A stretch of DNA of 64,000 nt from an uncultured Spirochaetales bacterium (GCA_964596425.1 CAZQTC010000023.1:648190-712189), one strand, 5' to 3'; counted from the first letter of the stretch, positions 24,496 to 61,281 are shown. Numbers and translations are program-made. The notes: generated by a model from the letters alone, not told the origin.

Positions 24496-24933
24496 CTACT
24501 TCTTAAGAACCATTAAGACTCGCTCAAGAACCTTCTTTCTGTCAAGAGGCTTAACAATATAATTCTTAGCTCCAAGCAACAATGCTTTTTTTACAAGGTC
24601 TTGTTTTCCCAGAGCACTAATCATTATAACCTTTGCATTTTTATCAAACTCTAAAATCTTCTCCAATGCAGTAATGCCATCCATTTTAGGCATAGTAATA
24701 TCCATCGTTACAAGATCAATATTGGGGTACAATTCCTTATATTTTTCAACCCCCTCCTCACCGTCAGAGGCAGTGTCGGCTATCTCAAATCCTTCAGAGT
24801 TTAATATCTGGGTTATCTGTTTTTTCACAAACATTGAATCATCCACTATTAAAACACGATACGGGGTACCATCTTCCTTTATCCCATCAGGTTCTCTCTC
24901 ATTTATGCTCGGAAAATCCGTCTTTGTCTTCAT
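24496..24933 (-). CDS. cheY: Chemotaxis response regulator CheY
   Basis: Single REC domain: RVLIVDDS..., phosphoacceptor LVTMDITMP, SALG, KPL. Confidence 0.85.
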   Translation of the reverse strand: MKTKTDFPSINEREPDGIKEDGTPYRVLIVDDSMFVKKQITQILNSEGFEIADTASDGEEGVEKYKELYPNIDLVTMDITMPKMDGITALEKILEFDKNAKVIMISALGKQDLVKKALLLGAKNYIVKPLDRKKVLERVLMVLKK

Positions 24934-24945
24934 TTATTTTCCTCC

Positions 24946-25410
24946 CTAATTTTTTTCACGTACGGCAACGTTTATTTCAAGTTTTCCCAATGGCATCTCT
25001 ATAGGCACTATCAAAGCCTCAACAGAGACATCTGAGACCTCCATTTTTTTACCGGTAAATATAGCCGGTGGAGTAATATCAAACTTAAAACCAAGCTCCG
25101 ATAATTTAGTAACCGCCTGAGCTGTAATCATATTGGCAAGCTCGGTAATTGTTGCCTTTGTTAAATCATCCAATTTCGTCATCTGCTCACCATTCATTGC
25201 AGATGCTATTGCCAACGCTGTTTCTTCTGTCATATCAAATAACACCCTTCCCTCAACATCACCAGTCAACCCTATTATTGCAGTAACCCCTAAAACAGGC
25301 TGTGAGGATGATTTTAAATATAATTCTCCTCTTGTCAATTCCGTACCCAGAACTTCCTTAAGAATGTTAAATGCTGCTTCCACAAAAGGATTAATATACT
25401 CGACACGCAT
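24946..25410 (-). CDS. cheX: CheY-P phosphatase CheX (CheC/CheX family)
   Basis: A 154-aa protein beginning MRVEYINPFVEAAFNILKEVLG with a CheC-like fold pattern, in the canonical spirochete position between cheW and cheY. Confidence 0.75.
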   Translation of the reverse strand: MRVEYINPFVEAAFNILKEVLGTELTRGELYLKSSSQPVLGVTAIIGLTGDVEGRVLFDMTEETALAIASAMNGEQMTKLDDLTKATITELANMITAQAVTKLSELGFKFDITPPAIFTGKKMEVSDVSVEALIVPIEMPLGKLEINVAVREKN

Positions 25411-25443
25411 TGTCTCCCCCTTTTAAATCTTCTCAAAATTAAT

Positions 25444-26772
25444 TTAATACTTTTCCACTTTATAGGCTATCACATTTCCCTCCTGGAGCTTATACCACTC
25501 CTTCGCTGGCAATGTCTCATTTAATCCGAGAATCACAATTCCACCCTCATTCAACATCGTTTTAAACTGATCGATCAACCACTCCTGTTTATCTGGTTTC
25601 TGAAAAGAGAGAATATCCCTCGCAACTATTATGTCCTGTTTTGGGTAATCGTTTCTATTAAGGACATCATGATACTCAAAGGTTATTAAATCTTTTATCT
25701 CACGCTTAAATCTATACCTACCACTATCTACCTCTTCAACAAACCCGTTATCCAACATAAAACTTGGTATTTGATCTTTAGAAACTACCAGATTAGGGGC
25801 TGTGGATATATTGAGTAAATCTTTATCATTAGCCCACACCTTTATCATGTTGTTTTTATACCTATCCCGTAAAATCGCCGCTATTGAGTAAGACTCGTAA
25901 CCCTTCCCACACCCCAAATTCCACACATTTATTATTCCCTGATAGCGCTCAGGAAGAATCTTTTGAAGGTTTTCCTTGTAATCGTTTCCCCACAGCATCC
26001 CGGTATAGGGGGAGTAAAAGGGTCGCAAAAAATTCTCAGCATCCGAAGCATTTTCCAACTGAACCTTCTCTCCAGCAGAGGTACGAAGGTTTTTCCACTC
26101 CTCAAATCTTCTCTTTGTCCATTCATAATTTAAGTCAGTGACATAAAAAGACTTAAACGTGACAAGAGTTTCTGCCACAAACTTAAACTCAATATCTTCC
26201 TCATCCGTTTTTACCTTTATCTCTTTTTCCGGTGCTTTGTATTCTATTCTCTCCTCTCGGTCATACGTAGAGGCTAATACCTCCTCCTTACCAAAAATTC
26301 TATCCACATCAAGGATAATATAGAGTTTACTATCACTCTCAACTACCCCGCTTATATATTTAACATTAATATCACTAAAGAGCGGATGAGGAGGCTTTAT
26401 CTCTTCCTTCGCAATTCCAACAACCCTATCAATCTGATCCACTATAACACCAAGGGTAATATCCTCAAGCTTGAGTATAAGAACGTCTTCTTCCCTCTTA
26501 TTAGGATCCATAATAGGAACATGAAACATTTTCCTTAGATCAATTATAGGAATAATCTCACCCCGAAGATTATGCACCCCTCTTACAAATGGAGCAGTAT
26601 TGGGAACCATGGTAAACTTACTCTCTTTAAGAATCTCTTTTATTTTCATTATGTCTATAGCATACTCTTTTCCGCCGAGAGAAAAGGTAATAATCTTAAA
26701 ATCTATCTTTTTCTTTAATTTTTGTTCCTCTGTTAATTCCTGAATTGTATCACTCATATACTGCCCATCCAT
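25444..26772 (-). CDS. CheW-domain protein fused to C-terminal CheR-type SAM methyltransferase domain (CheW3-like)
   Basis: The N-terminal CheW domain reads FSLGGKEYAIDIMKIKEI...VRGVHNLRGEIIPIIDLR. The C-terminal half carries the CheR MTase motifs VWNLGCGKGYESYSIAAIL and DIIVARDILSFQ...EGGIVILGLNE. Confidence 0.75.
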   Translation of the reverse strand: MDGQYMSDTIQELTEEQKLKKKIDFKIITFSLGGKEYAIDIMKIKEILKESKFTMVPNTAPFVRGVHNLRGEIIPIIDLRKMFHVPIMDPNKREEDVLILKLEDITLGVIVDQIDRVVGIAKEEIKPPHPLFSDINVKYISGVVESDSKLYIILDVDRIFGKEEVLASTYDREERIEYKAPEKEIKVKTDEEDIEFKFVAETLVTFKSFYVTDLNYEWTKRRFEEWKNLRTSAGEKVQLENASDAENFLRPFYSPYTGMLWGNDYKENLQKILPERYQGIINVWNLGCGKGYESYSIAAILRDRYKNNMIKVWANDKDLLNISTAPNLVVSKDQIPSFMLDNGFVEEVDSGRYRFKREIKDLITFEYHDVLNRNDYPKQDIIVARDILSFQKPDKQEWLIDQFKTMLNEGGIVILGLNETLPAKEWYKLQEGNVIAYKVEKY

Positions 26773-26777
26773 ATAAT

Positions 26778-29078
26778 CTATACTATAGTGGTAGATTTAA
26801 CTCTCTCACTCTCATGCTTAAGCCCAAGCTCGAGGAGCTGATTAACATCTAAAATCAACGCTACCGTACCATCACCAAGAATAGTTGCACCTGCTATGCC
26901 AGGGGTGTTTGTAAACCTATCACGCAGTGGCTTAATAACCACATCTTCCTCACCAATCAAAGAATCCACCATAAGTCCAACCTTTTTATCACCACTTCCA
27001 ACGATCACTATAAAGTAGAATTGCCGATTCTCATCCGTGGGGATTCTAAACAACCTATTCAACCTCAATAGAGAGAGTACATCTTTGCGTATATTAAAAA
27101 CCTCGTAACTATCGAGCATTTTTATCTCGGATGGCTTTATACGCAGACTCTCGATTACAGAGGTAATAGGAATAGCATAGATCTCTTCTCCTACCTTCAC
27201 GAGCAAACCTTGAATAATTGCCAATGTTAAGGGAAGTTTTATCGTAAATGTTGTACCCTTACCTTTCTCGGAAAATACCTCGACCGTCCCATTCAACTTC
27301 TCAACCTGTTTTCTTACAACATCAAGTCCTACACCTCTTCCCGATATATTGGTAATCTTTGTAGCCGTTGAAAACCCAGGCTCAAAGATAAGGTTAAACG
27401 CCTCAATATCGGTTAAACTCTTATTTGGATGTATCAAACCCCTCTCAACAGCTCGTTTCTTGACCGCCTCCACATCGATACCCTTACCATCGTCCGAGAT
27501 TTCGATAACAATCATGTTTCCTTCATTTCTCGCCTTAAGAAGAATATGACCCTCTTCCGACTTTCCAGTCTTAACCCTCTCGGTCGGGGACTCAATTCCA
27601 TGGTCAATAGAATTCCTAACACAGTGAATCAATGGATCGAGTAAATCTTCAATTACTGACTTATCAAGCTCTGTATCTTCACCCTCTATATCCAATACTA
27701 TCTTCTTCTTCAAATTTTTCGATAGATCCCTAACAAGCCTCGGAAACCTCGAAAATATCTGAGAAACGGGGACCATTCTTATTCTCATAACCCCTTCTTG
27801 AAGATCCCCTGTAATCCTACTTAAGTTTTGAGCGTTACTCCTAAATTGATTAACTGTTGCCTTTAAATTGGCTTCAAAATTATCAAATATATTAAAGAGT
27901 TCCCCGAAATTTTCTTGAAGTTCTTTCTTTATCGAGACACCGTTACGCCCATTGTTACTGGTAAACGATTCTATTCTCTCCTCTATAAAAGCGAAGAGAT
28001 CCTTTAACTTTTCTCTATACAGAACCTGGGTTTCCTGCAACTCTTGTAAATTACTAACAAATGTATTAGCAATCTGATTAAATGTAGCCTTATTAATTAC
28101 AGTTTCACTTACAAGATTTAAAAGATCATCAACTCTACTACTATCAACACGTAACACAGAACCATGGACTACAGGTTTCTTAACCTGTTTCTGTTTCTGA
28201 ACCTCTTCAACTTTTTCGGGTTTCCCAACTGCCTCTTTCTCCGGAGGTTTTTCCTCTTTCCTCTCTTCACCTTCCTTTGACTTTTCACTCTCCTCTCCCC
28301 TTGCCGTCGAGACAGGCTCCACCACAGAGGCAAGAGTTACATCGGGTATCTCGCAAATTTTCTGTATCTCCTCCGGTTTCTCCTCGGTAGCAACCCAATA
28401 CTCCACCTCGGGATAAAAATTATCCTCATAGAGTTTTTCGAATTCGGGGGTAGTTTTAACTATTCTCCCTATCTCCTTTAGCGCTGCATATACCTGAACC
28501 CCTCCAACCGTATTCATTACATAATCCGGATTAAATTTTACAGTTACCTTGTAAACCGTCGAACTTTTAGCTATCTCTTCTATCTCTAACTTCTCAAGCT
28601 CGCTAAGTTCTTTAAGCTCCGGTTGAGAAGTAGTTGTTTCCTCTTTCTTAGCCCTCTCGGTCTTCGTATCGGCTTTCTTCTGGTCTCCAAGCAATGATTT
28701 TAAAGCCTCGGCCGTTTCACTAATATCCTCGCTATACACCTCCCCACTCAAACGAGCTTCGAGCATTGCCTTAATTATATCAAGAGACGTCAAGAGTTGA
28801 TCCACAACCTCCGGGGTTGTACGTAAATTGCCCGAACGAAGCTCGTCCAACACATCCTCCACTATATGGGTAAACTCCGCTATTTCATTCATTTCTACCG
28901 TAGCGGCGCCTCCCTTTAGTGTATGAGCCGCCCTAAAAATTTCATCTATGGCTTCATGGTTATCAGGTTCGTTCTCCAGAAGCAAAATATTCTGTTCCAG
29001 AGTTTCCACCTGAGCCTGAGCTTCTTCGAAAAAATCCTTTAAAAGCTCTTCGTTTGCCGGATCTAAATAATCACTCAT
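26778..29078 (-). CDS. cheA: Chemotaxis histidine kinase CheA
   Basis: HPt motif HTLKGGAATVEM; HATPase G-boxes (NSIDHGIE, DDGKGID, GRGVGLDVV); C-terminal CheW-like domain. Confidence 0.9.
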   Translation of the reverse strand: MSDYLDPANEELLKDFFEEAQAQVETLEQNILLLENEPDNHEAIDEIFRAAHTLKGGAATVEMNEIAEFTHIVEDVLDELRSGNLRTTPEVVDQLLTSLDIIKAMLEARLSGEVYSEDISETAEALKSLLGDQKKADTKTERAKKEETTTSQPELKELSELEKLEIEEIAKSSTVYKVTVKFNPDYVMNTVGGVQVYAALKEIGRIVKTTPEFEKLYEDNFYPEVEYWVATEEKPEEIQKICEIPDVTLASVVEPVSTARGEESEKSKEGEERKEEKPPEKEAVGKPEKVEEVQKQKQVKKPVVHGSVLRVDSSRVDDLLNLVSETVINKATFNQIANTFVSNLQELQETQVLYREKLKDLFAFIEERIESFTSNNGRNGVSIKKELQENFGELFNIFDNFEANLKATVNQFRSNAQNLSRITGDLQEGVMRIRMVPVSQIFSRFPRLVRDLSKNLKKKIVLDIEGEDTELDKSVIEDLLDPLIHCVRNSIDHGIESPTERVKTGKSEEGHILLKARNEGNMIVIEISDDGKGIDVEAVKKRAVERGLIHPNKSLTDIEAFNLIFEPGFSTATKITNISGRGVGLDVVRKQVEKLNGTVEVFSEKGKGTTFTIKLPLTLAIIQGLLVKVGEEIYAIPITSVIESLRIKPSEIKMLDSYEVFNIRKDVLSLLRLNRLFRIPTDENRQFYFIVIVGSGDKKVGLMVDSLIGEEDVVIKPLRDRFTNTPGIAGATILGDGTVALILDVNQLLELGLKHESERVKSTTIV

Positions 29079-29203: not shown

Positions 29204-29911
29204 ATGGAATTTATCGTTGTTGAACACTCTCCTCAGATAAGAGAAAACCTGTGCTATATCCTACTAACACTCGGTGTAAAAGGAATCCCTGTGGCTAACA
29301 AAGATGAGGCACTAGAAATATTAAAGAACAAAGATATTAGTGGTGCAATCATTGATGTCGATAATAAAGAGGTGGAAGGACTTAAGTTAATAGAAGAAAT
29401 AAAACACAATGAAAAAACAAGAAACATTCATATAATTGTACACTCCGTACAATCTCAAAAAGAATTCGTGCTTAAAATGGTAGAAATGGGGGTTGTTGGA
29501 TACCTTCTCAAACCAATGGAAGAGGAAACAACAACGGAAAAATTAAAAAAAATTCTACAAAAATTAGAAACACATAGATTAGAAAGAAAACACATCAGAG
29601 TAAAACCAGACCCTGAAGAGATTCCAAGGCTACATTTTAGATTAACTGAGTATCCCAAACTAATTTCAGGGAAAATACTGGATATAAGCATGGGAGGAGT
29701 TGCCGTAGAATTATTCAATCCTCCACCGGAAGGGGTGCTACAGCCAAAAATGAAAATCCCCTCAATCCAATTTACACTCCTGAACAAACAAATAAATGCA
29801 GAGGGAGAAATCGTAATAGCAAGGGGGAACGTTATAGCCATAAAGTTCACAAATATACCAAGGGAGGATAGTATAAACCTTGCCAAGTATATATTCAAAC
29901 AAATATCCTGA
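29204..29911 (+). CDS. CheY-like receiver (REC) domain fused to PilZ c-di-GMP-binding domain
   Basis: GGAGG lies 7 nt upstream of the ATG at 29204. The REC-like N-terminus has FIVVEH, GAIIDVD, IIVHS and GYLLKP. The PilZ motifs are RKHIR (RxxxR) and DISMGG (DxSxGG). It is divergent from cheA. Confidence 0.65.
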   Translation: MEFIVVEHSPQIRENLCYILLTLGVKGIPVANKDEALEILKNKDISGAIIDVDNKEVEGLKLIEEIKHNEKTRNIHIIVHSVQSQKEFVLKMVEMGVVGYLLKPMEEETTTEKLKKILQKLETHRLERKHIRVKPDPEEIPRLHFRLTEYPKLISGKILDISMGGVAVELFNPPPEGVLQPKMKIPSIQFTLLNKQINAEGEIVIARGNVIAIKFTNIPREDSINLAKYIFKQIS

Positions 29912-29975
29912 CCAATTTCACAAATTTGATTTTTTTGAAATAAGAACTACAATTTTAGTGGAGGGAAAATTAAAC

Positions 29976-31148
29976 ATGAGAAAATTAAGTACGATAAGCA
30001 AATGTTCCAAATATAAAATTAGCAAATTGTTGAAAGTAAAAATTGTCATTTTCCTAGTAACGCTAACCCTTATTCCTTATAGAGTATTTTCTGCCAATGT
30101 AACGGTACCCTACTTAGAACTTATCACCAGAGGAACCGTCCAAAACGGATTGTATCAATTAACAACAAAGGGAGAAATGGATCTTGTAGTTGAAGGCGGA
30201 TACAAATTTGGAGGCAAATTAATCTTAAGCTACAATAGTGATAACCTGGAAACAAACTCATTAACGGACAGTCTCACTTTTAAAGGGGCCAGTGTAAGCA
30301 TCAAAAAACTTCTCTCTTTACCACTAAATTTCTCTTATTTCGTGGGAGAAAATGATACTTTTTGTTCAGGAAGTGATTTTACCAACATATTTGGAAGTAT
30401 TCCCATAACCTCTCAGTACTCTGGATACATATACTTCCCCGAAGGAATAATATATGATGGTATTTATACTATCTCGGGCACAGGTTTGAAATTAAAACTC
30501 ACTCCCACGAACAATTCACTTTACGCCCTCTACCTATACCAAGATTCCAACATAGTTCATACGGTTAACAATGAACAAACAGTATGGCTTGGACATTACT
30601 CAGGCGATTTCAGATTTATGCTCAATACAGAGCATATAAAATTTGAAGCCTTTGCCGGTATGACATTCCCTATCTCAAGCTACGGATACTATAGAGGTGG
30701 ACTTCTATTCTATACAGCCGATCAGGGAGTTGAATTCCTGGCGCAGGTGGGCATCCCAAGATGGGATCCTGCAACCGATCTATTCGGGATAAATTTATTC
30801 TACCTTCTATTCGAACCAAGGGTTCATATGGGATTCTTTTCAATCATACCAACCTTTTTCTGGCATCCGGAGTACTACAACCAAAAAGAAACAGGAGAGC
30901 TTGGTTCCTTCGATGTGAATGTAAATTTTCTATTTGGAAACCCCATTCAGTCACCAATAAGCGGAGGAGTCGAGAGCAATCTCTCCTTTAGTACCATAGG
31001 AAGCCAACAGTTTTTGGTTAAACTTTCCCCTTATATAGGATTTATAACTCAGGGTGTAATGTGGAAATTAAAGATAAATTTCAGACTGTGGCCTTTTTCC
31101 CTTACCAACTTTGTAGAATCATTTATCGGCATCAGGGCTGAATTTTGA
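29976..31148 (+). CDS. Hypothetical predicted outer-membrane beta-barrel protein
   Basis: GGAGGG lies 10 nt upstream of the ATG at 29976. It has a signal/TM segment, alternating hydrophobic/aromatic beta-strand-like composition, and a C-terminal aromatic residue (..RAEF). Confidence 0.45.
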   Translation: MRKLSTISKCSKYKISKLLKVKIVIFLVTLTLIPYRVFSANVTVPYLELITRGTVQNGLYQLTTKGEMDLVVEGGYKFGGKLILSYNSDNLETNSLTDSLTFKGASVSIKKLLSLPLNFSYFVGENDTFCSGSDFTNIFGSIPITSQYSGYIYFPEGIIYDGIYTISGTGLKLKLTPTNNSLYALYLYQDSNIVHTVNNEQTVWLGHYSGDFRFMLNTEHIKFEAFAGMTFPISSYGYYRGGLLFYTADQGVEFLAQVGIPRWDPATDLFGINLFYLLFEPRVHMGFFSIIPTFFWHPEYYNQKETGELGSFDVNVNFLFGNPIQSPISGGVESNLSFSTIGSQQFLVKLSPYIGFITQGVMWKLKINFRLWPFSLTNFVESFIGIRAEF

Positions 31149-31164: not shown

Positions 31165-32076
31165 ATGAGCAAAAGCAAACGAAATACACTCTTATTCACA
31201 TTACTCCTCTTTTTTCTCCTTTCGTTTAGTCTATATTCGCTGGATGTTGGTATAAACTTTCGAATTGGAAATCTCGCTTTTAGGAATGACAGAACCGCCA
31301 ACGATACAACCTTTAACGGAACTAATTACTTTTATGGATTATCACTTTTCACCACAGCCTCTATCTCGGACAATTTTAGCTTTGAAAGCGGTTTCTTTAA
31401 CGATGCTATACTAAAGAATATCTCATACACAATATTCAACTACAGACAAAAATTTATCACCATAGGCGTTGGGCCATTCTTCGGTTTTTTTAACTCAACA
31501 AGCACAATTCTCAAATCCGGGATATCCACAAGCATACTCCTGGAACTTCCAGGAATTGTGTTTCTCCGATTTCGCTCCGACAGTACAATAGGGGGAAGAC
31601 TAATAGAGATTGGTGACTACATCCAGGAACGGAACAATATTTCGGCAGGTTACTACGTAAAAAATGCAATATGCTCTTTAAATCTATCCTCAAAGAAGTA
31701 CATACAAAAGGCGAGTTCCACCATAGAAACTGTCGATAGCCTTACAGAATACTCCTTTAAAACAGAAGTTTTTCAAAAAAATATGCCATACACTATAGAC
31801 ATTGCATTTGCCTACCAGACTCTAAAGAAGGAATTTATAACATCCACAACTACTACAAAACACACTCTAAACTCAATAATTCTAAAAACAAAACTTAAAT
31901 TTTTTATAGAGGAGTACTTGACACTCTACACAGATCTGGAGAGCAGCATCTATACCTTCGGCGAGGATGCACTCCTCGGGATATCCAATCCAGGCCCGGG
32001 AGGGTATCTTTTCCGATTAAATACAGGCGTTACACTTAACCTTGACAAAATCGTAAAACTCAACAGGATATTCTAA
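31165..32076 (+). CDS. Hypothetical predicted outer-membrane beta-barrel protein
   Basis: AAGGAG RBS; signal peptide MSKSKRNTLLFTLLLFFLLSFSLYS; Tyr/Phe-rich beta-like repeats; C-terminal Phe (..NRIF). Confidence 0.45.
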   Translation: MSKSKRNTLLFTLLLFFLLSFSLYSLDVGINFRIGNLAFRNDRTANDTTFNGTNYFYGLSLFTTASISDNFSFESGFFNDAILKNISYTIFNYRQKFITIGVGPFFGFFNSTSTILKSGISTSILLELPGIVFLRFRSDSTIGGRLIEIGDYIQERNNISAGYYVKNAICSLNLSSKKYIQKASSTIETVDSLTEYSFKTEVFQKNMPYTIDIAFAYQTLKKEFITSTTTTKHTLNSIILKTKLKFFIEEYLTLYTDLESSIYTFGEDALLGISNPGPGGYLFRLNTGVTLNLDKIVKLNRIF

Positions 32077-46041: not shown

Positions 46042-46071
46042 TTGACAATTAAACTACCATTAGCGTAAATT
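46042..46071 (+). promoter_or_regulatory. Candidate sigma70 promoter of the acidic-protein/Maf operon
   Basis: TTGACA at 46042-46047, an 18-nt spacer, TAAATT at 46066-46071; the GGGGGA RBS precedes ATGATG at 46140. Confidence 0.35.
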
Positions 46072-46139: not shown

Positions 46140-48338
46140 ATGATGAGTAAAGAAGCAAGAGAAAACGATGATATTTCTCTATCCAGTACTGAGTTAGACT
46201 CTATACTAGAAAGTGCAGATGAAGTAACAGAGAACCAAGAAAAGGAAGAAGAAAATATAGAGGAATACGGTGTTTGGGTTAAAGTAGAACCCGAGGATGT
46301 AGAAGAAGAGATAAAGAAAGAGGAAACAGACAAGGGCTACGAACTTTCGGATTTAGAAAGTGAAAGAGAAGAAAATCCATTAACAGACGAGGAAGAGAAA
46401 TTGCTTGGAGAACTAGAAGAAAGAATTAAAGATAAAGAAAAACTATCCGGGACACAAGAAACAAATGAGGAACTACCCGATTTAGAAATAGAGGATCTGG
46501 AAGACATTGATCTGTCGGAGGATATAGAATTACCGGATATAGAATTACCCGAAGAAGAAACATTGGAGGAAACTCCAAAGGCAGAAGAAACAAAAGAAGA
46601 AACAAAAACGGAAGAGATAAAAGATAGGATCTCACCATCATCTGAGGAGAAAGTTGTATCAGAAACAACGCCTGAGTCAGAAGAGATGTCAATAGACCTT
46701 GAAAACCTGGAAGAAGTAGCGGAGGAACCTTCCTCCGAAGAACTCTTAGAAGAGTTAAATACTGAGAATCCATTCGAGGAGGACGCCGAGAGCTTAGAAA
46801 TTGAAGAACTACCAAACCTGGAAGAGGGTGAAGAGACCACGGAGGAGACCCCATCTTTAGGAGGGGAGAGAGAATCTCTAGAAATACCAGAGGAAAATCT
46901 TCCGGGTTTAGAAGAGACAGATCTAGAAAATCTCACAATTGAAGAACCGGAAATAGAACCTCTGGATCTCTCCGAAGACATAGGGGAAGTAGAAACAGAA
47001 GAAACACTTCCAACTGCGGAGAACGAAATAGAGGAAATCGAATTGGAAGAATCCCCACTGGAAGAAAAAGAAGAATCAACGGAAGAGTTACCTAAAATGG
47101 AAAATGAAACCGAGGAAAGCGAGTCCAATGAGCCTATTGAAGAGATTAGCCTTGAAGATTTCGGGATAGAAGAAACACCCCCAGAGGGCGAATTGCCGCC
47201 AGCAGGAGAGACATCAGAGGAGGAAGAGAAAAAGGAAGAGGAGATAGAGGTTCCCCTTAGTGAACAGGTAGTAACGGATGAACATTTTGATGATCTCGGC
47301 GCTTTAGAAAAGGAATTAACGGAAACGGAAGAAGAATCAATAGAGAGTAGGCCGGAGGTTTCTCAAGAGGATACCTATAAGCCCACAGGAATGACCGAAG
47401 AGAATTCTGCAACTATACTCCTCAAAATCGAAAAGGAGTTGAGTGAAATAAAGAACGATCTGGTAGAACTAAAAAGGGAACTCTCCGTCTTAAAAGAAAT
47501 ACCAACCATTAAAGAAGCGAAAGAACCCTCAAGGGCCGAGACAGAAGAAAAGGCCAGAGAGTCAACGGGCTTTTTTGAAGATTCCGAAGAAGACGAGACT
47601 ATAGCATTAACCAACGATGAGCTAGACAATATTTTAAGTAGTGCTGATATTACAGAAGAGGTGGTTGAAGAAAAACCAATTGTGATAGAAGAGGAACAGG
47701 CTCCCCAACAACCAAAGGAAACTTTGGAAGAAATTTCTCAAACAGAAACACCAGAGGAAGGGCCGTCTGAAGAATCATTGATGGACAAAGAGGATATCTT
47801 AAAATATGAAGAAGAAATAGGAAAAGAAAACATCCCTCAACAAGAAACCCCGCAAGAAATCTCTTTAGAGGAAGAGCAAGAGGTTTCAGAGGAAAAGCCA
47901 GAAATAGAAGAGATAGAACTGGAAATACCGGAGGAGGAAGAGCCAGTCCAGGCTCAAACTCCATCAATTTCTCCGGAAGAACCTCAACAACCCGCCGAGA
48001 TAACAGAAGAGGAGAGCGAAAAACCGGAAGAGATAGAACTGGAAATGCCAGAAACAGAAACACAAGGGGAGAAGGAGGAAGAAGCATTACAAGAAGAACG
48101 TGCTCCAGGTGAAAAAGAGACAACCCGGGAAGAAGAAATATCAACAGAAGGAGAAATAGAAAAACCTCAGGAGGAGAAAAAAATACCTGATGACTTAAAG
48201 GAAGAGATCAAGTCGGTACTTGCATATATGGATCAACTCCTTGAGGCTCTTCCTGAAGAAAAAATTCAGGAATTTGCTCGTTCCGAGTACTTTGGTGTAT
48301 ATAAAAAATTATTTGAAGAATTAGGATTAGGAACCTAA
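46140..48338 (+). CDS. Extremely acidic Glu-rich low-complexity protein (732 aa) with conserved N- and C-terminal segments
   Basis: By eye, about 45% of the central 650 aa are Glu. Repeated E-x-P-E-E-I-E-L-E units are present. A 24-nt direct repeat gaagagatagaactggaaat occurs at about 47910 and about 48022. The ELDxILxSADxTE motif occurs twice. The C-terminal tail has ordinary composition (SVLAYMDQLLEALPEEKIQEFARSEYFGVYKKLFEELGL). Confidence 0.7.
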   Translation: MMSKEARENDDISLSSTELDSILESADEVTENQEKEEENIEEYGVWVKVEPEDVEEEIKKEETDKGYELSDLESEREENPLTDEEEKLLGELEERIKDKEKLSGTQETNEELPDLEIEDLEDIDLSEDIELPDIELPEEETLEETPKAEETKEETKTEEIKDRISPSSEEKVVSETTPESEEMSIDLENLEEVAEEPSSEELLEELNTENPFEEDAESLEIEELPNLEEGEETTEETPSLGGERESLEIPEENLPGLEETDLENLTIEEPEIEPLDLSEDIGEVETEETLPTAENEIEEIELEESPLEEKEESTEELPKMENETEESESNEPIEEISLEDFGIEETPPEGELPPAGETSEEEEKKEEEIEVPLSEQVVTDEHFDDLGALEKELTETEEESIESRPEVSQEDTYKPTGMTEENSATILLKIEKELSEIKNDLVELKRELSVLKEIPTIKEAKEPSRAETEEKARESTGFFEDSEEDETIALTNDELDNILSSADITEEVVEEKPIVIEEEQAPQQPKETLEEISQTETPEEGPSEESLMDKEDILKYEEEIGKENIPQQETPQEISLEEEQEVSEEKPEIEEIELEIPEEEEPVQAQTPSISPEEPQQPAEITEEESEKPEEIELEMPETETQGEKEEEALQEERAPGEKETTREEEISTEGEIEKPQEEKKIPDDLKEEIKSVLAYMDQLLEALPEEKIQEFARSEYFGVYKKLFEELGLGT

Positions 48339-49681
48339 TGGGGCTTCTTCAAAAAGCTGATAGTCTAACTCAGAAAAAATCCTCCCGAGGAAGAGGACTT
48401 TTAAAACGCACATTAGAAATTCTCGAAAAAAATAAAACAAGTGAGGGTTATCCTACATTACCCCATCAAGAAGAAAGCAAATCCAAAACACGAACCTATA
48501 TCTCTCAAGAAGAGGTGGATCGTCTCCTCAAAGAGAGCAACAAGCGCAAAGAATATATAAGAAAAAACCTCCAGAACTGGAAAAAACACAAAAAGGTACC
48601 TACAGTACCTCTCACATGGGCCGAAGCCAATAGAGAAGCACCCACAATAACGCGTGACCCCACAATAAGAGAAGAGGATATCGAAACTCTTCTTAAAAAT
48701 AACAATAATAAAACTAAAGAAGAAAAGATGGGCGATTCTAGCACATCGGAATTGCTCATCGATAACTTGGATCTGTTACATAGAATGATCGAAGAGACAC
48801 CAGAGGGTATAGAAACACCAATAGCCGTGTTTTCCAAACTAAAAGAGTTTTTATCAATAAAAAAGGGAGCCATTCTTCTCTACGACCCACTGAGGATGGT
48901 GTTTGCTCCCTGGGCCAGTGTGGGTTATGACAAAACAACGCTTCACCGAATGCGAATTCCCATTGGTTTTTCTGAAAGTTTTAATTCAATAACGGGGGGC
49001 AACATAACTACTCTTCACGAGAATCTCGATGAGTACAGAAAATTTTTTTCAAACAGAGAGTTTAATCTTATAAACAGACTCATCTTCGTGCCTTTCATTT
49101 TCAACGAAAAGTTAATTGCTCTATTACTCATTCAAGAAGTAAGAGAGGGAATTACAGAGGAAAATCTAATTTCAATGTTCAAAGAACTTTCGCCTATAAT
49201 CTCTCAAAAAATATACAATGCAAGAGAGAAAAAATTCAAACTCCTAAAGGTGATGCAACCCGAAGAATTTGAATCTATCCGTGAAAAAATTCAAAGTGAC
49301 ATAAAAAGAGCACAAACCAACGAGAAAAAAGTAATTGCTTTACTACTATCTCTGGAAAATGTTACCGGCACTTTACCTAAAGAGATCATTGCTCATTCGG
49401 ATCAATATCGAATCAGTGAAGATATTGAAAAAATTCTAAAATCACTCTTTTACTCAACAGGGCGCGTATTCAAACTGAACAACTTCAATTACCTCATAGA
49501 CATCTTTAACATTAGAGAGCCTGACATGGAACTAATCCTAGATCAGCTCTTGTATAATCTCAATTATTTTCTGACAGATAAAAGCACCCATTTGGACCTT
49601 CATAACAAAATAAACTATAAATACAAAATTTTCCCCGATGAGGCAAAAACAGAAAGTGAATTACTCTCCGGACTCATCTAG
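48338..49681 (+). CDS. Hypothetical protein with central GAF-like region, translationally coupled to the acidic protein
   Basis: Its ATG overlaps the upstream TAA (TAATG). Residues roughly 140-290 have a GAF-like alternation; the C-terminal 150 aa are unassigned. Confidence 0.45.
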   Translation: MGLLQKADSLTQKKSSRGRGLLKRTLEILEKNKTSEGYPTLPHQEESKSKTRTYISQEEVDRLLKESNKRKEYIRKNLQNWKKHKKVPTVPLTWAEANREAPTITRDPTIREEDIETLLKNNNNKTKEEKMGDSSTSELLIDNLDLLHRMIEETPEGIETPIAVFSKLKEFLSIKKGAILLYDPLRMVFAPWASVGYDKTTLHRMRIPIGFSESFNSITGGNITTLHENLDEYRKFFSNREFNLINRLIFVPFIFNEKLIALLLIQEVREGITEENLISMFKELSPIISQKIYNAREKKFKLLKVMQPEEFESIREKIQSDIKRAQTNEKKVIALLLSLENVTGTLPKEIIAHSDQYRISEDIEKILKSLFYSTGRVFKLNNFNYLIDIFNIREPDMELILDQLLYNLNYFLTDKSTHLDLHNKINYKYKIFPDEAKTESELLSGLI

Positions 49682-49697
49682 AGGCAACTAACTTTAA

Positions 49698-51335
49698 ATG
49701 TGCAAAGTTGAATTATCCCTATCACGTAACAAACTTCCAACGGCAAAAATAAATGGCATTCGGTATCATTCCACCTATGATCCTCAAAGAGAAGCAATTC
49801 GATTCTTAGAAAACGCATTAGGTACACCTAATTCACATCTTCCCCTTTGCCTTATCATTATCGGAGCCGGTCTAGGATATCTGGAAACAGCCGCAAAAGC
49901 GATAAACTCTTCAATTAAGGTAATAAATATTCATCTATGCGAAGAGCTCTTAAAATATCGCTTTCCAATCTCCACCAACTCAGTAGTCTACAGCACACCA
50001 ATTCAACTATTAAGATACCTAAAAACAAAGATAGCAGAATTCGAGCTACCCGGACTCAAAGTAATAGAGTGGCCTCCAGCTAATAAACTTTTTCCACACA
50101 AAATAAAAGAAGTGAGAGAAACCATTCTGACTCTGACAAAAGAATATTCAGGAAATTTCAAGACAACCATTGCATTGGGGAAACGATGGATAAAAAATTC
50201 TTTCTTAAATTTTCTCTTTTTCGACTCTCCTATAAAGGACATACACTTCACGAATAATCCCATAATTGTTATTACAGCCTCCGGGCCAACACTCGAACAC
50301 TCCCTGTCCATCATAAAAAAATACAGAAAATACATCTTCCTAATAGCTCTTCCATCTTCTCTTCCAATGTACTCATACTATGAAATACAACCAGATCTCC
50401 TCGTACTTACAGATCCCGGATACTATTCCATCTATCATTTAAGTTTCTACACAAGAGGTAAATTAAATCTCCTAATGCCCTACTCCGGGGTTACCGGACT
50501 ATGGGATTTAAATTACACCCTGTTTCCTATCCTTCAAACTAATTTTTTTGAGATCGAGCTGGCTAAAAAAGCCAAACTGAAACTTCTGACAATACCCTCG
50601 CAGGGAACCGTAGCCGCCACTGCTCTAAACTACTCTGCAAATCTGAACCCCAGCGCTATCGTCTTTGCAGGGTTGGATTTATGCTTTTATGATGTTTTCT
50701 CCCACGCCAGAATAAGCGGCAGCGATTACTATTTTTACCTAACGAGTAATAAGTTACATCCCTACCTCACAGAAAAAGTCTTCAAACTCTATTCAGAAAA
50801 ATACATCGCACTAAAGACACAAGAGAATAACAGCACGATTAATCACTATATGTCAGAACCACTGTATCTATACTCAAAATGGTTTAGTAATACGGCAGAG
50901 CAATTTAACCTGCCCCTTTTTAGATTAAACGCCTCTCCGGTTAAACTTCGAGGCTTTATAAATATTGAGGAGGAAGAATTTAAATCTATAATCCGTTCCT
51001 CCGGAGCAAATGCAAGTAAATTAGGCAAACACGCCTTCAGGATTGAATACTACAAACATCAATACCCTAATTTCACAGAGAGAAAACAACTCTTAAAAAA
51101 GCTAATAGAACATTGGTTATCAGAATTAACCGTCATCGAGAAAACGAAAATAACCCCAAGCTTATTAAATGATACCTTTTTCAACTTTGCCTATTATTTT
51201 GACTTAAAAAAACTGAGTGAATTAAAGCAAAATATTATCGAAAATAATTATAGGAGGGCCAGAGAGCTAGTTGTAGAGTTAAATGATTCAATACACACAT
51301 TTCTCAACAAATATCTGGATATCCTACAGAAATAA
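49698..51335 (+). CDS. Motility accessory factor (Maf)-family protein, DUF115 / MptE-like putative flagellin glycosyltransferase
   Basis: Conserved core IVITASGPTL...LVLTDPGYY...IVFAGLDLCFYD, matching the Maf GxGPSL ... D ... G(I/L)D pattern. It is a paralog of the next gene. Confidence 0.65.
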   Translation: MCKVELSLSRNKLPTAKINGIRYHSTYDPQREAIRFLENALGTPNSHLPLCLIIIGAGLGYLETAAKAINSSIKVINIHLCEELLKYRFPISTNSVVYSTPIQLLRYLKTKIAEFELPGLKVIEWPPANKLFPHKIKEVRETILTLTKEYSGNFKTTIALGKRWIKNSFLNFLFFDSPIKDIHFTNNPIIVITASGPTLEHSLSIIKKYRKYIFLIALPSSLPMYSYYEIQPDLLVLTDPGYYSIYHLSFYTRGKLNLLMPYSGVTGLWDLNYTLFPILQTNFFEIELAKKAKLKLLTIPSQGTVAATALNYSANLNPSAIVFAGLDLCFYDVFSHARISGSDYYFYLTSNKLHPYLTEKVFKLYSEKYIALKTQENNSTINHYMSEPLYLYSKWFSNTAEQFNLPLFRLNASPVKLRGFINIEEEEFKSIIRSSGANASKLGKHAFRIEYYKHQYPNFTERKQLLKKLIEHWLSELTVIEKTKITPSLLNDTFFNFAYYFDLKKLSELKQNIIENNYRRARELVVELNDSIHTFLNKYLDILQK

Positions 51336-51337
51336 AA

Positions 51338-53020
51338 GTGGCGGACCTATCAATGAATAAAAAAATTTATGAAAGAAACCTTTTAGCACTCTCAGTCAAC
51401 AATCCTGAAATTTCCTCCAGGCTAAAAATACTTGAAGAAAAAAAAAGTACAGTACATTTTGTAATATCAAAAACAAATCTGCTTATCCCAACAATAAACA
51501 CCCCCAATGGTAATATACCATTACACTCCACCTTTGACCCTATAAAGGAAGGTTACCGATACTACACCACAACTCCAAAGGGAGAATTTATGATATTTAT
51601 AGGTTTCGGAGGCGGCTACCATATTCTTCCCTTCCTTAAACATAAAGAAATATCTCAGATTCTCGTCATAGAAAAAAACATCCTTCTCTTCAAGTCGGTA
51701 CTTGAAAACATTGACGTGAGAGAAATCCTCACAGATCCACGACTGACTCTTCTAGTAGAAAGTTCTCCCGAACAAATTAAACACTTTTTACTATCTAATT
51801 ACTTTCCCGCCATCTCCGGAGACTTACAAACCATAATCCTACAACCAATACTACGAATTGAAAAAAACTTCCTCAATGAAACAGTTAACGCCATAAAGGC
51901 AGCCATAAGTAAAATCGCCGATGATTACACGGTTCAAGCGCATTTTGGCAAGAAATGGTTCACCAATACTCTCTTAAATCTCGCTGCAGCAGAAAAATCC
52001 TATTTAACCTTAAAACCAATAAAAGAAGTAATGATAACAGGAGCAGGACCCTCTCTTGAAGCACAACTCGACAAAATCAAAGAAATAAAAAAAAGAGCCC
52101 TTCTCCTGGCTACCGATACATCATTACCCTTTCTATTAGATAATGATGTAATTCCGGACATGGTTATCTCCATAGATTGCCAACAGGTGAGTTATCATCA
52201 TTTCTTAAAGGGGTTACCACCAGATGTCCCTCTAATTATAGATCTTGCATCTCCCCCTATACTAACACGACTAACGGAAAAGATTATTTTCTTCTCGAGC
52301 AACCACCCCTTTTCTATATTTGTAAATCGCAAATGGAGAAGTTTTCCAATTATTGACACCTCTGGTGGTAATGTCTCCCACGCTGCTGTTTCTCTTGCCC
52401 ACAAACTCGGAGCCGAGAGAATTTATCTGTTTGGAATTGACTACTCATACCCGGAGGGTAAAGTATATGCGAGGGGTACCTATATATATCCATATTTCCG
52501 CTCCCTGGAAAAGCGTACCACTCCTTTAGAAACAAAGCTCTTTGAATTTATAATGCGTAACAAAGCAATAAGTAAAACATTTAAAAATGGCACTGTTATT
52601 TATACCACAAAACCAATGAGTAGCTACCAAACAAGGTTAGAAGAATACATCAACACCCTCGACTGTGAAATTATTCAAATCCCCGGCAGGGGAATATCAT
52701 TAAACATACCCTCCAACATCCAACGTTCCACCAAATCCGTTCTTAGAAAAATATTTGCCGCAGGTCCCTACACCGTATCATGGCGACAATTTTTACAGGA
52801 GTATTTATCCCTGGTAGAAAAATTACCAGAACCATACTTACCTCTAGGGAAATACTTAAAAAATCTTTCTATGGAAGAGCGAGATATATGGTTCACTCAA
52901 TTTCCAGCAGCTGCTGCTATAAGGGAACTGGACAAATTATCCGAAGTTACTCCGCCCGAACTATTAAAGTACGTAAGAGAATGGACACTATCCAAAGTAA
53001 AACACATTCTAGAGAGTTAA
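51338..53020 (+). CDS. Motility accessory factor (Maf)-family protein, DUF115 paralog
   Basis: VMITGAGPSLEAQ...MVISIDCQQ...RIYLFGIDYSYPEG. The start is ambiguous: the GTG at 51338 or the ATG at 51353. Confidence 0.65.
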   Translation: MADLSMNKKIYERNLLALSVNNPEISSRLKILEEKKSTVHFVISKTNLLIPTINTPNGNIPLHSTFDPIKEGYRYYTTTPKGEFMIFIGFGGGYHILPFLKHKEISQILVIEKNILLFKSVLENIDVREILTDPRLTLLVESSPEQIKHFLLSNYFPAISGDLQTIILQPILRIEKNFLNETVNAIKAAISKIADDYTVQAHFGKKWFTNTLLNLAAAEKSYLTLKPIKEVMITGAGPSLEAQLDKIKEIKKRALLLATDTSLPFLLDNDVIPDMVISIDCQQVSYHHFLKGLPPDVPLIIDLASPPILTRLTEKIIFFSSNHPFSIFVNRKWRSFPIIDTSGGNVSHAAVSLAHKLGAERIYLFGIDYSYPEGKVYARGTYIYPYFRSLEKRTTPLETKLFEFIMRNKAISKTFKNGTVIYTTKPMSSYQTRLEEYINTLDCEIIQIPGRGISLNIPSNIQRSTKSVLRKIFAAGPYTVSWRQFLQEYLSLVEKLPEPYLPLGKYLKNLSMEERDIWFTQFPAAAAIRELDKLSEVTPPELLKYVREWTLSKVKHILES

Positions 53021-53043: not shown

Positions 53044-53871
53044 TCAATAATAAATAATCCCACCGTATCCAACAAACGAATCACCCGGGAAAATATCGTA
53101 GCTCGTATAATAATCCAGAAGAGTACTACGTTTCAAACCACTTTTAATTGCAAATGCTAAAGCGACGGCAGCGCCACCAGCAGAACAGGCAGATCTATTT
53201 TTCACAGCATGCTCAATTGCCTCTTTAGGTTTGAAATTAAGCATCAATTCTAAATACCCTCTATCATTCACCTCTTTAACCCACTTCACCGCCTGCTTCC
53301 CACTTCCAGCTGGCATAAAACCGTAATTCAACCCATAGTGAGTTAGATCTGTAGAACCTATAACAGCCACCTTCCTTCCCATTTCCTTTGCCACATCGTA
53401 TATTACTTCTCCAAGATGTATTGCTTCTTCGGAGGGTGCAGCTCTCATGCCTATAACCTTTTTTTTCGGGAATAGATACTTTACAAAGGGAAGTTGGATT
53501 TCCACACAGTTATCCGCATATCTATCTTCGTATAACTCAATCTTCTCCCTAATCCAATTTAACATCTCCGTATCAGCTTCAAGTACACCCAACGGGGTTT
53601 CGAATCCCTCTTCAAACTCCGCATAAAGACCATCAGAGGGAGTAAGATGCCCCCCGACAATGACAATGGTATCAATTTTCCGGTCAATAGAACTTAATAC
53701 CTCGAGCGCCACTTTACCAGAAAACTCCCATCCGGCGTGGGGAACAATTCCCGCTCTTGCAGTAGTAACTGTGGTCTTAATCCTTCCAAGTTCTCTCTCT
53801 ATCCTCTCACGGGTTTCATCACCCCTAGCAGGATACCAACCAACAGGCAAGGTTCTTTCTCTTATTCTCAT
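53044..53871 (-). CDS. MEMO1-family protein (AmmeMemoRadiSam system protein B-like)
   Basis: GWYP, VPHAGWEFSG and GSTDLTHYG motifs. Confidence 0.75.
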   Translation of the reverse strand: MRIRERTLPVGWYPARGDETRERIERELGRIKTTVTTARAGIVPHAGWEFSGKVALEVLSSIDRKIDTIVIVGGHLTPSDGLYAEFEEGFETPLGVLEADTEMLNWIREKIELYEDRYADNCVEIQLPFVKYLFPKKKVIGMRAAPSEEAIHLGEVIYDVAKEMGRKVAVIGSTDLTHYGLNYGFMPAGSGKQAVKWVKEVNDRGYLELMLNFKPKEAIEHAVKNRSACSAGGAAVALAFAIKSGLKRSTLLDYYTSYDIFPGDSFVGYGGIIYY

Positions 53872-53963: not shown

Positions 53964-55124
53964 ATGAAAAAAACAATCTCAGTTTTTGTAATAATCAGTG
54001 TTGTTTTTTACGTTTTTACGCTTTTGTTCTTCGGTATTAAATACAAAACAACCCGTGATCACAATCTTAAACAGATCAACTCACAATTCAAGGAACTAAA
54101 AATCCTAATCTCGTCAGTATACTCCGCTACCAATTCATTCAGTTCAAAATACTTCAAAATGCGAGTTCACCAAATAGTAAAAAATAACAAACGACTCAGA
54201 TTAATCATGATATCCAGTTCCCAAGGTCAAATAGAGTATCTGTATACCAAAAACCGCTCTATAGTAAATAGAACAATTCTCGAAAAACCCCAAACTAACG
54301 TCAGCAAACTTAAAAAGCCACCCCTATTCTATCTCCATCCTCTTATACATAGTTACATTAAAAGCCCATTAATACCTATAAACAGCAACAGCTATGAACT
54401 TCATGCAATTTACACCGTTGTTTCCCATGGGGAATTATACAAACTCGTTAAAGACATGTTTTATACCTTTGTAGCATTTTTTATAGTAGTTTTTATATTC
54501 TCACTCTATCTTTTAACCGCCACGGGTCAAACAGCGCTTCCCTCTAACATGTCACGTGGTATTTCTAGTACCTCTAAACTTGATGTTTCGAAATCCCCGA
54601 AAGATACTACCAGCAGTATGTACTCCCCTATTTCTGGTGTAACGTGGAAAGAATACCTTGACGTAAAATTAGAGGATGAACTAAAAAAAGCAGATATTGG
54701 AAATTATAACCTTTCATTGGCAATTATAAAAATTGATGATTTTGAAGAATTAGAAAATCGAGAAGAGATATACTTATCACTCGTCAAAACTGTTCTCAAC
54801 AGATTTCCCGCAAAAAACTTTGTTTTTGAATGGGATGGGGGACTTGCATTAATCCTCCCCAAAACAGACATCAAACAAGCAATAAAAAAAATGGAAAAAC
54901 TACGGCAGAGTATTATTAACAAGTACTATACGACCTACAAATTTAGTATTTCTATAGGGATAAGTGCTAAAAATAATAGGGATATTTCCTCACCACAATT
55001 GATAAAGGAAACATCCCTCTCTCTAAAAAAGGCCATCTCTGAAGGAAAAAATCAGGTAATAGCCTTTAATGCGGATCCTGAGAAATATGCCAAAATACAC
55101 CCGGATCCAGAACAGTACAATTAA
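53964..55124 (+). CDS. Membrane protein with degenerate GGDEF domain (signature replaced by GGLAL)
   Basis: Two TM helices flank a roughly 140-aa periplasmic region. The C-terminal GGDEF-like domain reads LSLAIIKIDDFEELE...FVFEWDGGLALILP...FSISIGIS...KKAISEGKNQVIAF. Confidence 0.6.
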   Translation: MKKTISVFVIISVVFYVFTLLFFGIKYKTTRDHNLKQINSQFKELKILISSVYSATNSFSSKYFKMRVHQIVKNNKRLRLIMISSSQGQIEYLYTKNRSIVNRTILEKPQTNVSKLKKPPLFYLHPLIHSYIKSPLIPINSNSYELHAIYTVVSHGELYKLVKDMFYTFVAFFIVVFIFSLYLLTATGQTALPSNMSRGISSTSKLDVSKSPKDTTSSMYSPISGVTWKEYLDVKLEDELKKADIGNYNLSLAIIKIDDFEELENREEIYLSLVKTVLNRFPAKNFVFEWDGGLALILPKTDIKQAIKKMEKLRQSIINKYYTTYKFSISIGISAKNNRDISSPQLIKETSLSLKKAISEGKNQVIAFNADPEKYAKIHPDPEQYN

Positions 55125-60730: not shown

Positions 60731-60746
60731 TGGCATATTTATTGCT
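60731..60746 (+). promoter_or_regulatory. sigma54 (RpoN)-type -24/-12 promoter upstream of hsp20
   Basis: TGGCATATTTATTGCT matches TGGCACG-N4-TTGCW with the GG-N10-GC spacing exact. It lies about 55 nt upstream of the hsp20 ATG. Two 16-nt direct repeats sit at -160 and -120. Confidence 0.45.
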
Positions 60747-60800
60747 TATAAATCAGTGAAAAAATCGAAACAGAAAAATACAATGGAAGGAGGTGATAAT

Positions 60801-61223
60801 ATGAACCTGGTAAAGTACAAACCGACTGATATCTCATTCTTCGATTGGGATACAGTTTTAGATAGATTTTTTGAAGATCCTATCTTTGATACCAACGTTC
60901 CAGCAGTAGACCTGAAAGAGGAAGATGATAAATTCCTCATGGAGGTAGAACTTCCCGGTCTTACAGAAAAGGACATAGAACTGAAAATCGAAGGGAATCT
61001 GTTAACCCTTAGTTCCAAGAAAGAAATGACACGGGATGAAAAGAAAGACGGATACATAATCAAAGAGAGGAGACATACATCCTTTACTAGAAGTTTCACC
61101 TTGCCAAACTCAGTTGATAAAGACAAAATCGAAGCGGAGTTTAAAAACGGTTTACTCACGATAACGTTCCCCAAGATAGAATCTAAAAAGCCGAAACTTA
61201 TCAGTATAAAGAACAAGAAGTAG
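60801..61223 (+). CDS. Hsp20/alpha-crystallin family small heat-shock protein
   Basis: GAAGGAGGTG RBS lies 7 nt upstream of the ATG at 60801. The alpha-crystallin domain reads VDLKEEDDKFLMEVELPGLTEKDIELKIEGNLLTLS...FTRSFTLP...KNGLLTITFPK. Confidence 0.85.
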   Translation: MNLVKYKPTDISFFDWDTVLDRFFEDPIFDTNVPAVDLKEEDDKFLMEVELPGLTEKDIELKIEGNLLTLSSKKEMTRDEKKDGYIIKERRHTSFTRSFTLPNSVDKDKIEAEFKNGLLTITFPKIESKKPKLISIKNKK

Positions 61224-61249
61224 GCAGGGTCCCAGACAAAGAGAGCAAA

Positions 61250-61281
61250 AGAAGCCACCTTTGCTGGTGGCTTCTTTTTTG
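61250..61281. terminator. Bidirectional rho-independent terminator between hsp20 and the M16 peptidase gene
   Basis: AGAAGCCACC-tttgct-GGTGGCTTCT followed by TTTTTTG; an A-run precedes it, so it is also followed by T's on the minus strand. Confidence 0.65.

Follow-up and report, generated by a model that had tools for sequence, protein, structure and literature searches.

A conserved four-gene block of Spirochaetia joining two Maf-type transferases to an acidic disordered protein and a GAF/GGDEF-like protein: a candidate flagellin glycosylation module

Why would a spirochete encode two paralogs of the flagellin-modifying Maf family directly behind a large glutamate-rich protein and a protein with sensor-like folds? 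The question is raised by four genes, here called g1 to g4, which occupy positions 46140-53020 on the + strand of the window, i.e., of the whole analysed stretch of 64,000 nucleotides (nt; GC content ~39%) from an uncultured Spirochaetales bacterium (GCA_964596425.1, CAZQTC010000023.1:648190-712189). Sequence comparison leads us to favour, with moderate confidence, a cytoplasmic module for O-glycosylation of the flagellin FlaB by the Maf pair g3 and g4, in which a scaffolding role would fall to g1 and that of a ligand-sensing adaptor or regulator to g2. The block is composed as follows (coordinates, strand, feature):

46042-46071, + strand: candidate sigma-70-type promoter, TTGACA-18-TAAATT, a pattern match from a consensus scan
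46140-48338, + strand: g1, 732 amino acids (aa), ATG start
48338-49681, + strand: g2, 447 aa
49698-51335, + strand: g3, 545 aa
51338-53020, + strand: g4, 560 aa, GTG start

The four same-strand open reading frames (ORFs), their close spacing, and the TAATG coupling had been described in an earlier note on this DNA, and all of them are present: direct reading of the sequence gives a 1-nt overlap (TAATG) at the g1/g2 junction and gaps of 16 nt between g2 and g3 and of 2 nt between g3 and g4. For g4, an alternative ATG start at 51353 yields a 555-aa form used by other gene callers. The ATG of g1 at 46140 is preceded by a GGGGGA ribosome-binding site, and the candidate promoter resides in the 156-bp divergent intergenic region shared by divIC and g1. 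No terminator-like sites were found on the + strand between the genes of the block. Overall, the tight or overlapping junctions and an order which is invariant over 49 non-redundant loci (see below) make the four genes, judging by their layout, one tightly packed operon-like unit. The proteins g2 to g4 are basic, with isoelectric points (pI) of 8.7-9.3, vs. the very acidic g1. A hydrophobicity check revealed neither a signal peptide nor a transmembrane segment in g1, g2, g3, or g4; therefore, the periplasmic location once considered for g1 is unsupported.

The comparison of gene order suggested in the earlier note was carried out on 73 loci, collected by exact-protein look-ups and a metagenome scan with a g2 profile; 71 of them contained g2 and reduced to the 49 non-redundant loci mentioned above. 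Local hidden Markov models for g1 to g4 were run on the six-frame ORFs of these loci. The g2 proteins from the metagenome scan were 28-40% identical to that of the window, and the named sources were all metagenome-assembled genomes (MAGs) of uncultured Spirochaetota or Spirochaetia. Among the non-redundant loci informative for each gene, g1 was located upstream of g2 in 28 of 28 loci whose flank was long enough, g3 downstream of g2 in 33 of 33, and g4 downstream in 27 of 27, so the order g1-g2-g3-g4 on one strand is invariant, and the four-gene core is never broken. Such a picture might also be expected if g1-g2 and g3-g4 were functionally unrelated neighbours held together by long-range synteny of the lineage, the more so as unrelated flanking genes (Lon, Sua5, DivIC, Memo, and an ABC transporter) are kept in nearly the same loci. 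This explanation seems unlikely. In most lineages, the called neighbours either overlap (by 1, 4, 8, or 11 nt) or are separated by no more than 8 nt, and the lineage-specific character of these junctions points to a maintained translational coupling; as said, terminator-like sites on the + strand are lacking between the genes. The core remains unbroken while its flanks vary: a phosphoesterase gene is inserted in two loci (L010 and L011), the presence of VanY differs among loci, and in a third locus (L014) DUF1015 and a TP_0183_C gene are inserted and Memo is missing. In addition, a shared motif considered below connects g1 and g2 to g3. In two long-read contigs (L007 and L009), Lon, g1, and g3 were split into several ORFs, most likely by frameshifts from sequencing errors rather than by decay into pseudogenes.

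The putative catalytic part of the block is represented by g3 and g4, whose recognisable domains are listed here:

50247-50693, + strand: PF01973 (MptE-like/DUF115) domain of g3, residues 184-332, from Pfam
51587-51778, + strand: Maf_flag10_N (PF20157) domain of g4, residues 84-147 (E 3.8e-8, 33.5 bits vs. a cut-off of 23.5)
52007-52456, + strand: PF01973 domain of g4, residues 224-373, from Pfam

The earlier placement of both proteins among DUF115/Maf paralogs is borne out by PF01973 scores above the gathering cut-off of 34.6 bits (g3, E 5e-15, 56.1 bits; g4, E 2.7e-33, 115.6 bits) and by the 24% identity of g3 to g4 over 433 aa (E 1e-16). The crystallised Maf protein of Magnetospirillum (PDB 5MU5) was matched by g4 with E 7.5e-8 over residues 81-372, i.e., ~290 residues. 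A search of PDB sequences with g3 gave no match, and g3 showed no direct match to Maf_flag10_N; its alignment with g4 starts at residue 19. Neither protein had a Pfam match to a tetratricopeptide repeat (TPR) domain. Residues E324 and D415 are critical in the Magnetospirillum enzyme (Sulzenbacher et al., as excerpted in bioRxiv 10.1101/2020.06.03.131540), and their equivalents have been mutated in the Clostridium and Geobacillus enzymes (bioRxiv 10.1101/2020.06.03.131540). In our alignment, these two acids correspond to D280 and D368 of g4 and to D239 and D327 of g3, which are invariant in 11 orthologues, as is the nucleotide-sugar loop xGPS/T kept in both proteins. An additional conserved serine is represented by S or T among the orthologues of g4 (S342 in g4 itself) and by S or P among those of g3. 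Since the critical acidic residues and the xGPS loop are conserved, g3 and g4 look like competent Maf-type transferases, g3 being the more derived of the two.

Thus, the MAF_flag10/MptE-like domain, the GPS loop, and the critical acids are shared by g3 and g4 with the Maf enzymes of Magnetospirillum (5MU5), Campylobacter, Helicobacter, Aeromonas, and Shewanella (Maf-1 and Maf-2), and g4 also shares the Maf N-terminal domain; two adjacent Maf paralogs occur in Shewanella and Campylobacter as well. In contrast to the canonical Maf proteins, g3 is strongly diverged, and both g3 and g4 are devoid of TPR. Unlike the g3/g4 locus, the canonical genes are usually embedded in a flagellar cluster or a pseudaminic/legionaminic acid (Pse/Leg) biosynthesis cluster.

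The second gene had been called GAF-like in the earlier note; the GAF fold stands, and the description has to be completed with a degenerate GGDEF-like domain. After a poorly structured N-terminal part beginning with MGLLxKA, this basic protein comprises two domains:

48785-49237, + strand: GAF domain of g2 (GAF fold), residues ~150-300, with the invariant block LLLYDP...FAPWAS.GYD.TTLHR.RIPLG
49277-49678, + strand: GGDEF-like domain of g2 (nucleotidyl-cyclase fold), residues ~314-447, with the conserved motif LDPFRLxED

The [GAS]G[DE]EF signature is absent from all 24 aligned members of the g2 family, where the corresponding hairpin reads RQGxF or NNFNY, and no RxxD I-site was seen at the equivalent position when the alignment was read by eye. 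An active diguanylate cyclase was, therefore, rejected, and, since the family lacks the GG[DE]EF motif, g2 is a predicted pseudo-enzyme with two signalling folds. At E<=1e-10, an exhaustive HMMER profile search retrieved 353 representative clusters of this family, of which 124 also passed E<=1e-30; almost all were 260-450 aa long and aligned over the full length; against PDB sequences, the profile gave only chance-level matches. A possible functional parallel is PelD (PDB 4DMZ), a receptor of cyclic di-GMP (c-di-GMP) from the Pel machinery, which combines a GAF domain with a degenerate GGDEF domain and controls a glycosyltransferase. In contrast to PelD, g2 has neither transmembrane segments nor the I-site (the latter as read by eye), and sequence similarity between the two is undetectable; nucleotide binding by g2 is hypothetical.

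The first protein of the block, g1, contains 32.2% Glu and 5.1% Asp (37% together), its acidic share being 34-46% per 50-aa window across most of the protein; it has a net charge of about -215 and a pI of about 4. Hence, about one residue in three is Glu, and not every second one as estimated in the earlier note; its N-terminal "cap", there thought to be of ordinary composition, is itself 34% acidic. The claim that g1 is a real protein rather than junk is upheld by more than 280 database clusters in which its amino acid sequence is conserved. Nor does it look like an orphan: it probably belongs to the family PF27359 "TP_0179", widespread in Spirochaetia and named after the hypothetical protein TP0179 of Treponema pallidum. 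The window's g1 gave no match in the Pfam copy used, which lacks the PF27359 model; the assignment comes via homologues, of which more than 100 were retrieved with the conserved islands of g1 and carry this label as a precomputed annotation (E down to 7e-62), as do the syntenic counterparts of g1. The length range and the conserved islands of these homologues match those of g1. In the searchable literature, TP0179 is mentioned as a "hypothetical protein" only, with no function.

The AlphaFold2 (AF2) model of g1, built from 46 sequences, has a mean predicted local distance difference test score (pLDDT) of 47, with 532 of the 732 residues below 50, i.e., ~73% predicted disorder. Confident helices are limited to residues 83-103, 420-452, and 684-727. 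The following elements emerge from this background:

46266-46283, + strand: YGVWVK island, residues 43-48, invariant or nearly so across the family
47397-47495, + strand: long helix, residues 420-452, a probable coiled coil (AF2 pLDDT 79-94)
48183-48335, + strand: C-terminal three-helix domain, residues 682-732 (IPDDLKEEIKSVLAYMDQLLEALPEEKIQEFARSEYFGVYKKLFEELGLG; AF2 pLDDT 81-89)

In the island, Y43, G44, W46, and K48 are invariant in the 46 sequences, and V45 and V47 reach a conservation of 90% or more in 23; the long helix displays heptad-like conserved residues (I430, E431, L434, I437, and L444), and the C-terminal helices (684-703, 706-714, and 716-727 in the AF2 model) coincide with many invariant alignment columns. 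The family-wide invariant set comprises YGVWVK, LTxEEExLL, the coiled coil, ETIALTGDELDNILNTA[DE]ITEE, and the C-terminal PEEKIQEFAxSEYFxxYKKLFEELGLG, in proteins of 483-785 aa with linkers of variable length. The Ser/Thr positions of the disordered linkers show no conservation. Foldseek comparison of the g1 model with PDB returned nothing, as expected for a disordered protein, and PDB sequence searches with the islands gave chance-level matches only. An origin as a tandem-repeat artefact was rejected: the micro-repeats are two-copy only, and the non-repetitive islands are conserved.

The exact g1 sequence of the window is not found in a collection of 15 billion proteins. Many short-read contigs start or end inside g1 (L001-L003, L005, L016, L018, L021, and others); its low-complexity GAA-rich region breaks assemblies, which leaves the family under-represented in databases and its members often truncated. 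The richness of g1 in GAA/GAG codons also explains long Ser-/Leu-rich ORFs on the opposite strand (46337-47128, 46426-46854, and 47650-48144, all on the - strand), which were rejected as genes.

Is there anything in these sequences that would tie the accessory proteins to each other and to the transferases? A short motif recurs at three sites of the block:

46179-46208, + strand: LSSTELDSIL of g1, residues 14-23, in the N-terminally extended subgroup of the window only, absent from most members
47607-47636, + strand: LTNDELDNIL of g1, residues 490-499, the family-wide invariant motif LTxDELDNIL
48500-48529, + strand: ISQEEVDRLL of g2, residues 55-64, a regular-expression match, in the g2 subgroup of the window only

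The first copy lies in an N-terminal extension which distinguishes the window's g1 from most family members. In the second, for which the family consensus reads ETIALTGDELDNILNTA[DE]ITEE, nine of the ten positions (L490, T491, D493, E494, L495, D496, N497, I498, and L499) are invariant in the 46 sequences. The search pattern, [LIVM][ST]xx[ED][LIVM][DE]x[LIVM][LIVM], was defined after the motif had been seen, so its enrichment is descriptive. These three sites are its only matches in the stop-free segments of the window (26,900 aa). Over the 73 loci, 60 matches fell in g1, eight in g2, and three in g3; there were none in g4 and none in all other stop-free segments (~490,000 aa). Because the motif occurs in different block members in different lineages, it could be a docking motif for one common partner.

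A similar sequence, LSQxEIDALL, is carried by FliM. The EIDAL peptide at the N-termini of FliM and FliY is read by phosphorylated CheY (CheY-P; PMC6946799) and by FlhG (bioRxiv 10.1101/2022.04.21.489128). Its pattern is similar to that of the motifs of g1 and g2, and all of them represent short amphipathic helices surrounded by disorder; in contrast to FliM and FliY, g1 and g2 are unrelated to the C-ring. The likeness is one of pattern only.

This resemblance invites the idea that the block has nothing to do with glycosylation and encodes a spirochete-specific organising or signalling complex, e.g., a hub at the cell pole or division site or a device for sensing nucleotides. In this complex, the MptE-like domains would bind a nucleotide and g1 would act as a HubP/FimV-like landmark or a protein docking FlhG or CheY. 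Apart from the EIDAL-like motifs, one can list in its favour the two signalling-type folds of g2, the name of PF01973, given after a pterin diphosphokinase, the constant adjacency of the block to divIC, and the automatic annotation of g1 family members at the Joint Genome Institute (JGI) as "FimV". The last label was rejected as compositional, reflecting acidity only: a Pfam scan and hydropathy analysis of g1 (maximum Kyte-Doolittle 19-residue mean 0.57) revealed no LysM domain, transmembrane segment, or FimV C-terminal domain. The adjacency to divIC is a matter of divergent transcription within a broadly syntenic region. The match of g4 to the Maf-specific N-terminal domain and, over ~290 residues, to a Maf crystal structure, as well as the Maf catalytic acids kept in both g3 and g4, also speak against a complex unrelated to glycosylation, which we consider doubtful.

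We return, then, to O-glycosylation of FlaB by g3 and g4. The core flagellin FlaB of Treponema denticola bears nonulosonic-acid O-glycans at 4-5 Ser/Thr sites, which stabilise the filament core and its contacts with the sheath (PMC13439194), and O-glycosylation of Leptospira FlaB, with functional consequences, has been reported, too (bioRxiv 10.64898/2026.02.02.703089); the transferase is named in neither of these papers. Maf enzymes glycosylate flagellin in the cytoplasm prior to export (PMC4065374). From this and from the composition of the block, we infer FlaB as the acceptor, a nonulosonic-acid derivative as the donor sugar, and a physical complex of the four proteins. In such a scheme, g3 and g4 would modify Ser/Thr residues of FlaB before its export, and the two paralogs might differ in site or sugar specificity, like Maf-1 and Maf-2 of Shewanella. 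Since neither has a recognisable acceptor-binding domain, g1 would assist them as a scaffold, and g2 as an adaptor. By analogy with PelD, g2 would sense a ligand and regulate the transferases; g1 would provide a flexible scaffold with docking sites in its coiled coil, its C-terminal three-helix domain, and the LTxDELDNIL motif. The copies of the motif may recruit one partner, either g4 itself or an external reader of EIDAL peptides such as FlhG or CheY-P.

Reliance of a Maf enzyme on an accessory protein is not without precedent. In Shewanella, Maf-2 requires GlfM, a cis-encoded soluble four-helix bundle of 89 residues, to bind flagellin; in Maf-1, this task is fulfilled by a TPR domain of the enzyme itself (bioRxiv 10.1101/2023.12.03.569772). 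As GlfM binds Maf-2, which has no flagellin-binding domain of its own, and bridges it to flagellin (Unay, Kint & Viollier), so the operon of the window encodes non-enzymatic partners directly upstream of its transferases; the 89-residue GlfM contrasts, in a comparison made by description, with a disordered polyanion of 732 aa and a GAF/GGDEF-like protein of 447 aa. The novelty implied in the earlier note has to be narrowed accordingly: because GlfM has been described, the principle of a Maf with an adaptor is not new, while g1 and g2 as the partners are. Indeed, g1- or g2-like partners of a Maf locus, which the note knew from no described case, were not found in the searchable literature either.

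Several observations weigh against FlaB glycosylation by this block. Genes of flagellins, flagellar structure, or nonulosonic-acid biosynthesis were found neither in the 64-kb window nor around the related loci, as far as their flanks were annotated. Canonical maf genes are usually situated within flagellar or nonulosonic-acid biosynthesis loci. The match of g4 to NF050051, the NCBIfam equivalog model of PseD, reached 71.7 bits (E 4.7e-20), far from the cut-off of 670, and was limited to model positions 1-376 of 640. The pattern of the motif is post hoc, so its resemblance to EIDAL is a lead and not a test. The synteny extends to a large degree beyond the block: Lon, VanY, Sua5, and DivIC recur on its upstream side in the same loci, and on its downstream side Memo, a degenerate-GGDEF membrane protein, DUF4340, and an ABC transporter do so; the fixed order of the four genes may, therefore, owe something to phylogenetic inertia. 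A genome scan with peptide patterns specific to the g1 subgroup of the window returned one MAG only (the L006 contig), and no cultured spirochete was confirmed. Finally, the searchable literature on TP0179-TP0183 and on spirochete DUF115/Maf proteins yielded no experimental or functional data on any member of these families.

The lack of linkage of the locus to flagellar and flagellin genes would fit an acceptor other than flagellin, too, so the Maf pair might modify another protein of the cytoplasm or cell envelope or g1 itself, with g2 as a regulator. As a substrate, g1 has certain merits: it is the first gene of the operon, strictly co-inherited with the transferases, and has long exposed disordered stretches containing Ser and Thr, which make up 14% of its residues. 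At the same time, these linkers vary in length, their Ser/Thr are not conserved, and an export signal is lacking; the conserved parts of g1 are not acceptor loops but helices and motifs of the kind found at binding sites. The characterised Maf enzymes all act on flagellins. Hence, modification of a non-flagellin acceptor is judged improbable, and FlaB is retained as the candidate acceptor. An extension of FlaB glycosylation which we regard as speculative, and likewise improbable, is that g1 would be a hub, polyanionic, disordered, and specific to spirochetes, whose EIDAL-like helices (with those of g2 or g3 in some lineages) would dock the flagellin-glycosylating pair to FlhG and/or CheY-P at the nascent basal body, physically coupling FlaB glycosylation to flagellar assembly or export, gated by a small ligand sensed by g2. 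If true, this would constitute a previously undescribed organisational layer for protein glycosylation.

Against the background of what is already known, i.e., the Maf enzymes, the adaptor principle, and the Pfam accession for the family of g1, the following was found to be undescribed in the searchable literature: the obligate association of the four genes, the fold assignment of g2, the architecture of g1, and the shared motif. The occurrence of the block across deeply diverged Spirochaetia makes its members concrete candidates for the glycosyltransferases of FlaB, together with two unstudied partners; if the proposed roles are true, the principle of a Maf with an adaptor would be extended to a disordered polyanion and a pseudo-enzyme sensor. 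Judging by the names of the Pfam families, the block may reach Treponema pallidum (TP0179). In the L014 locus, from a distant Spirochaetaceae MAG, the gene at 4571-5476 (+ strand) encoding PF27487 "TP_0183_C" is located just upstream of divIC and a TP_0179-family gene, which hints that TP0179-TP0183 of T. pallidum may be the equivalent neighbourhood. Should the proposed function hold, the block would offer genetic targets for studies of motility and virulence in the spirochetes that cause syphilis and periodontal disease and, perhaps, in further ones.

Downstream of g4, the window contains two more genes which also come after the block in most of the related loci whose downstream flank is long enough:

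53044-53871, - strand: Memo-family gene, convergent with g4
53964-55124, + strand: membrane protein with a second degenerate GGDEF domain (PF00990, E 2.5e-5; WDGGLAL in place of RxGGDEF)

Both of them may belong to a larger functional neighbourhood of the block. Elsewhere in the window, a reading as a defence system was rejected, as PADLOC gave no matches. Six ORFs of 153-422 aa had no Pfam match at E<=0.001 (three of them none at E<=0.01):

29880-31148, + strand: ORF without a Pfam match
31165-32076, + strand: ORF without a Pfam match
16012-17127, + strand: ORF without a Pfam match
13185-13742, - strand: ORF without a Pfam match
4069-4530, - strand: ORF without a Pfam match
60746-61258, - strand: ORF without a Pfam match

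Another gene of the upstream part encodes a much longer protein:

19433-23482, - strand: 1349-aa protein with a PEP-utilizers domain and a weak LeuA_dimer match

The region 17-22 kb upstream of the Maf block is occupied by a chemotaxis operon of the spirochete type (24496-29078) and a divergently transcribed receiver-PilZ gene:

~24496-24933, - strand: CheY, chemotaxis operon
24946-25410, - strand: CheX, chemotaxis operon
25444-26772, - strand: CheW-CheR fusion, chemotaxis operon
26778-29078, - strand: CheA, chemotaxis operon
29204-29911, + strand: receiver-PilZ protein, divergent from the chemotaxis operon

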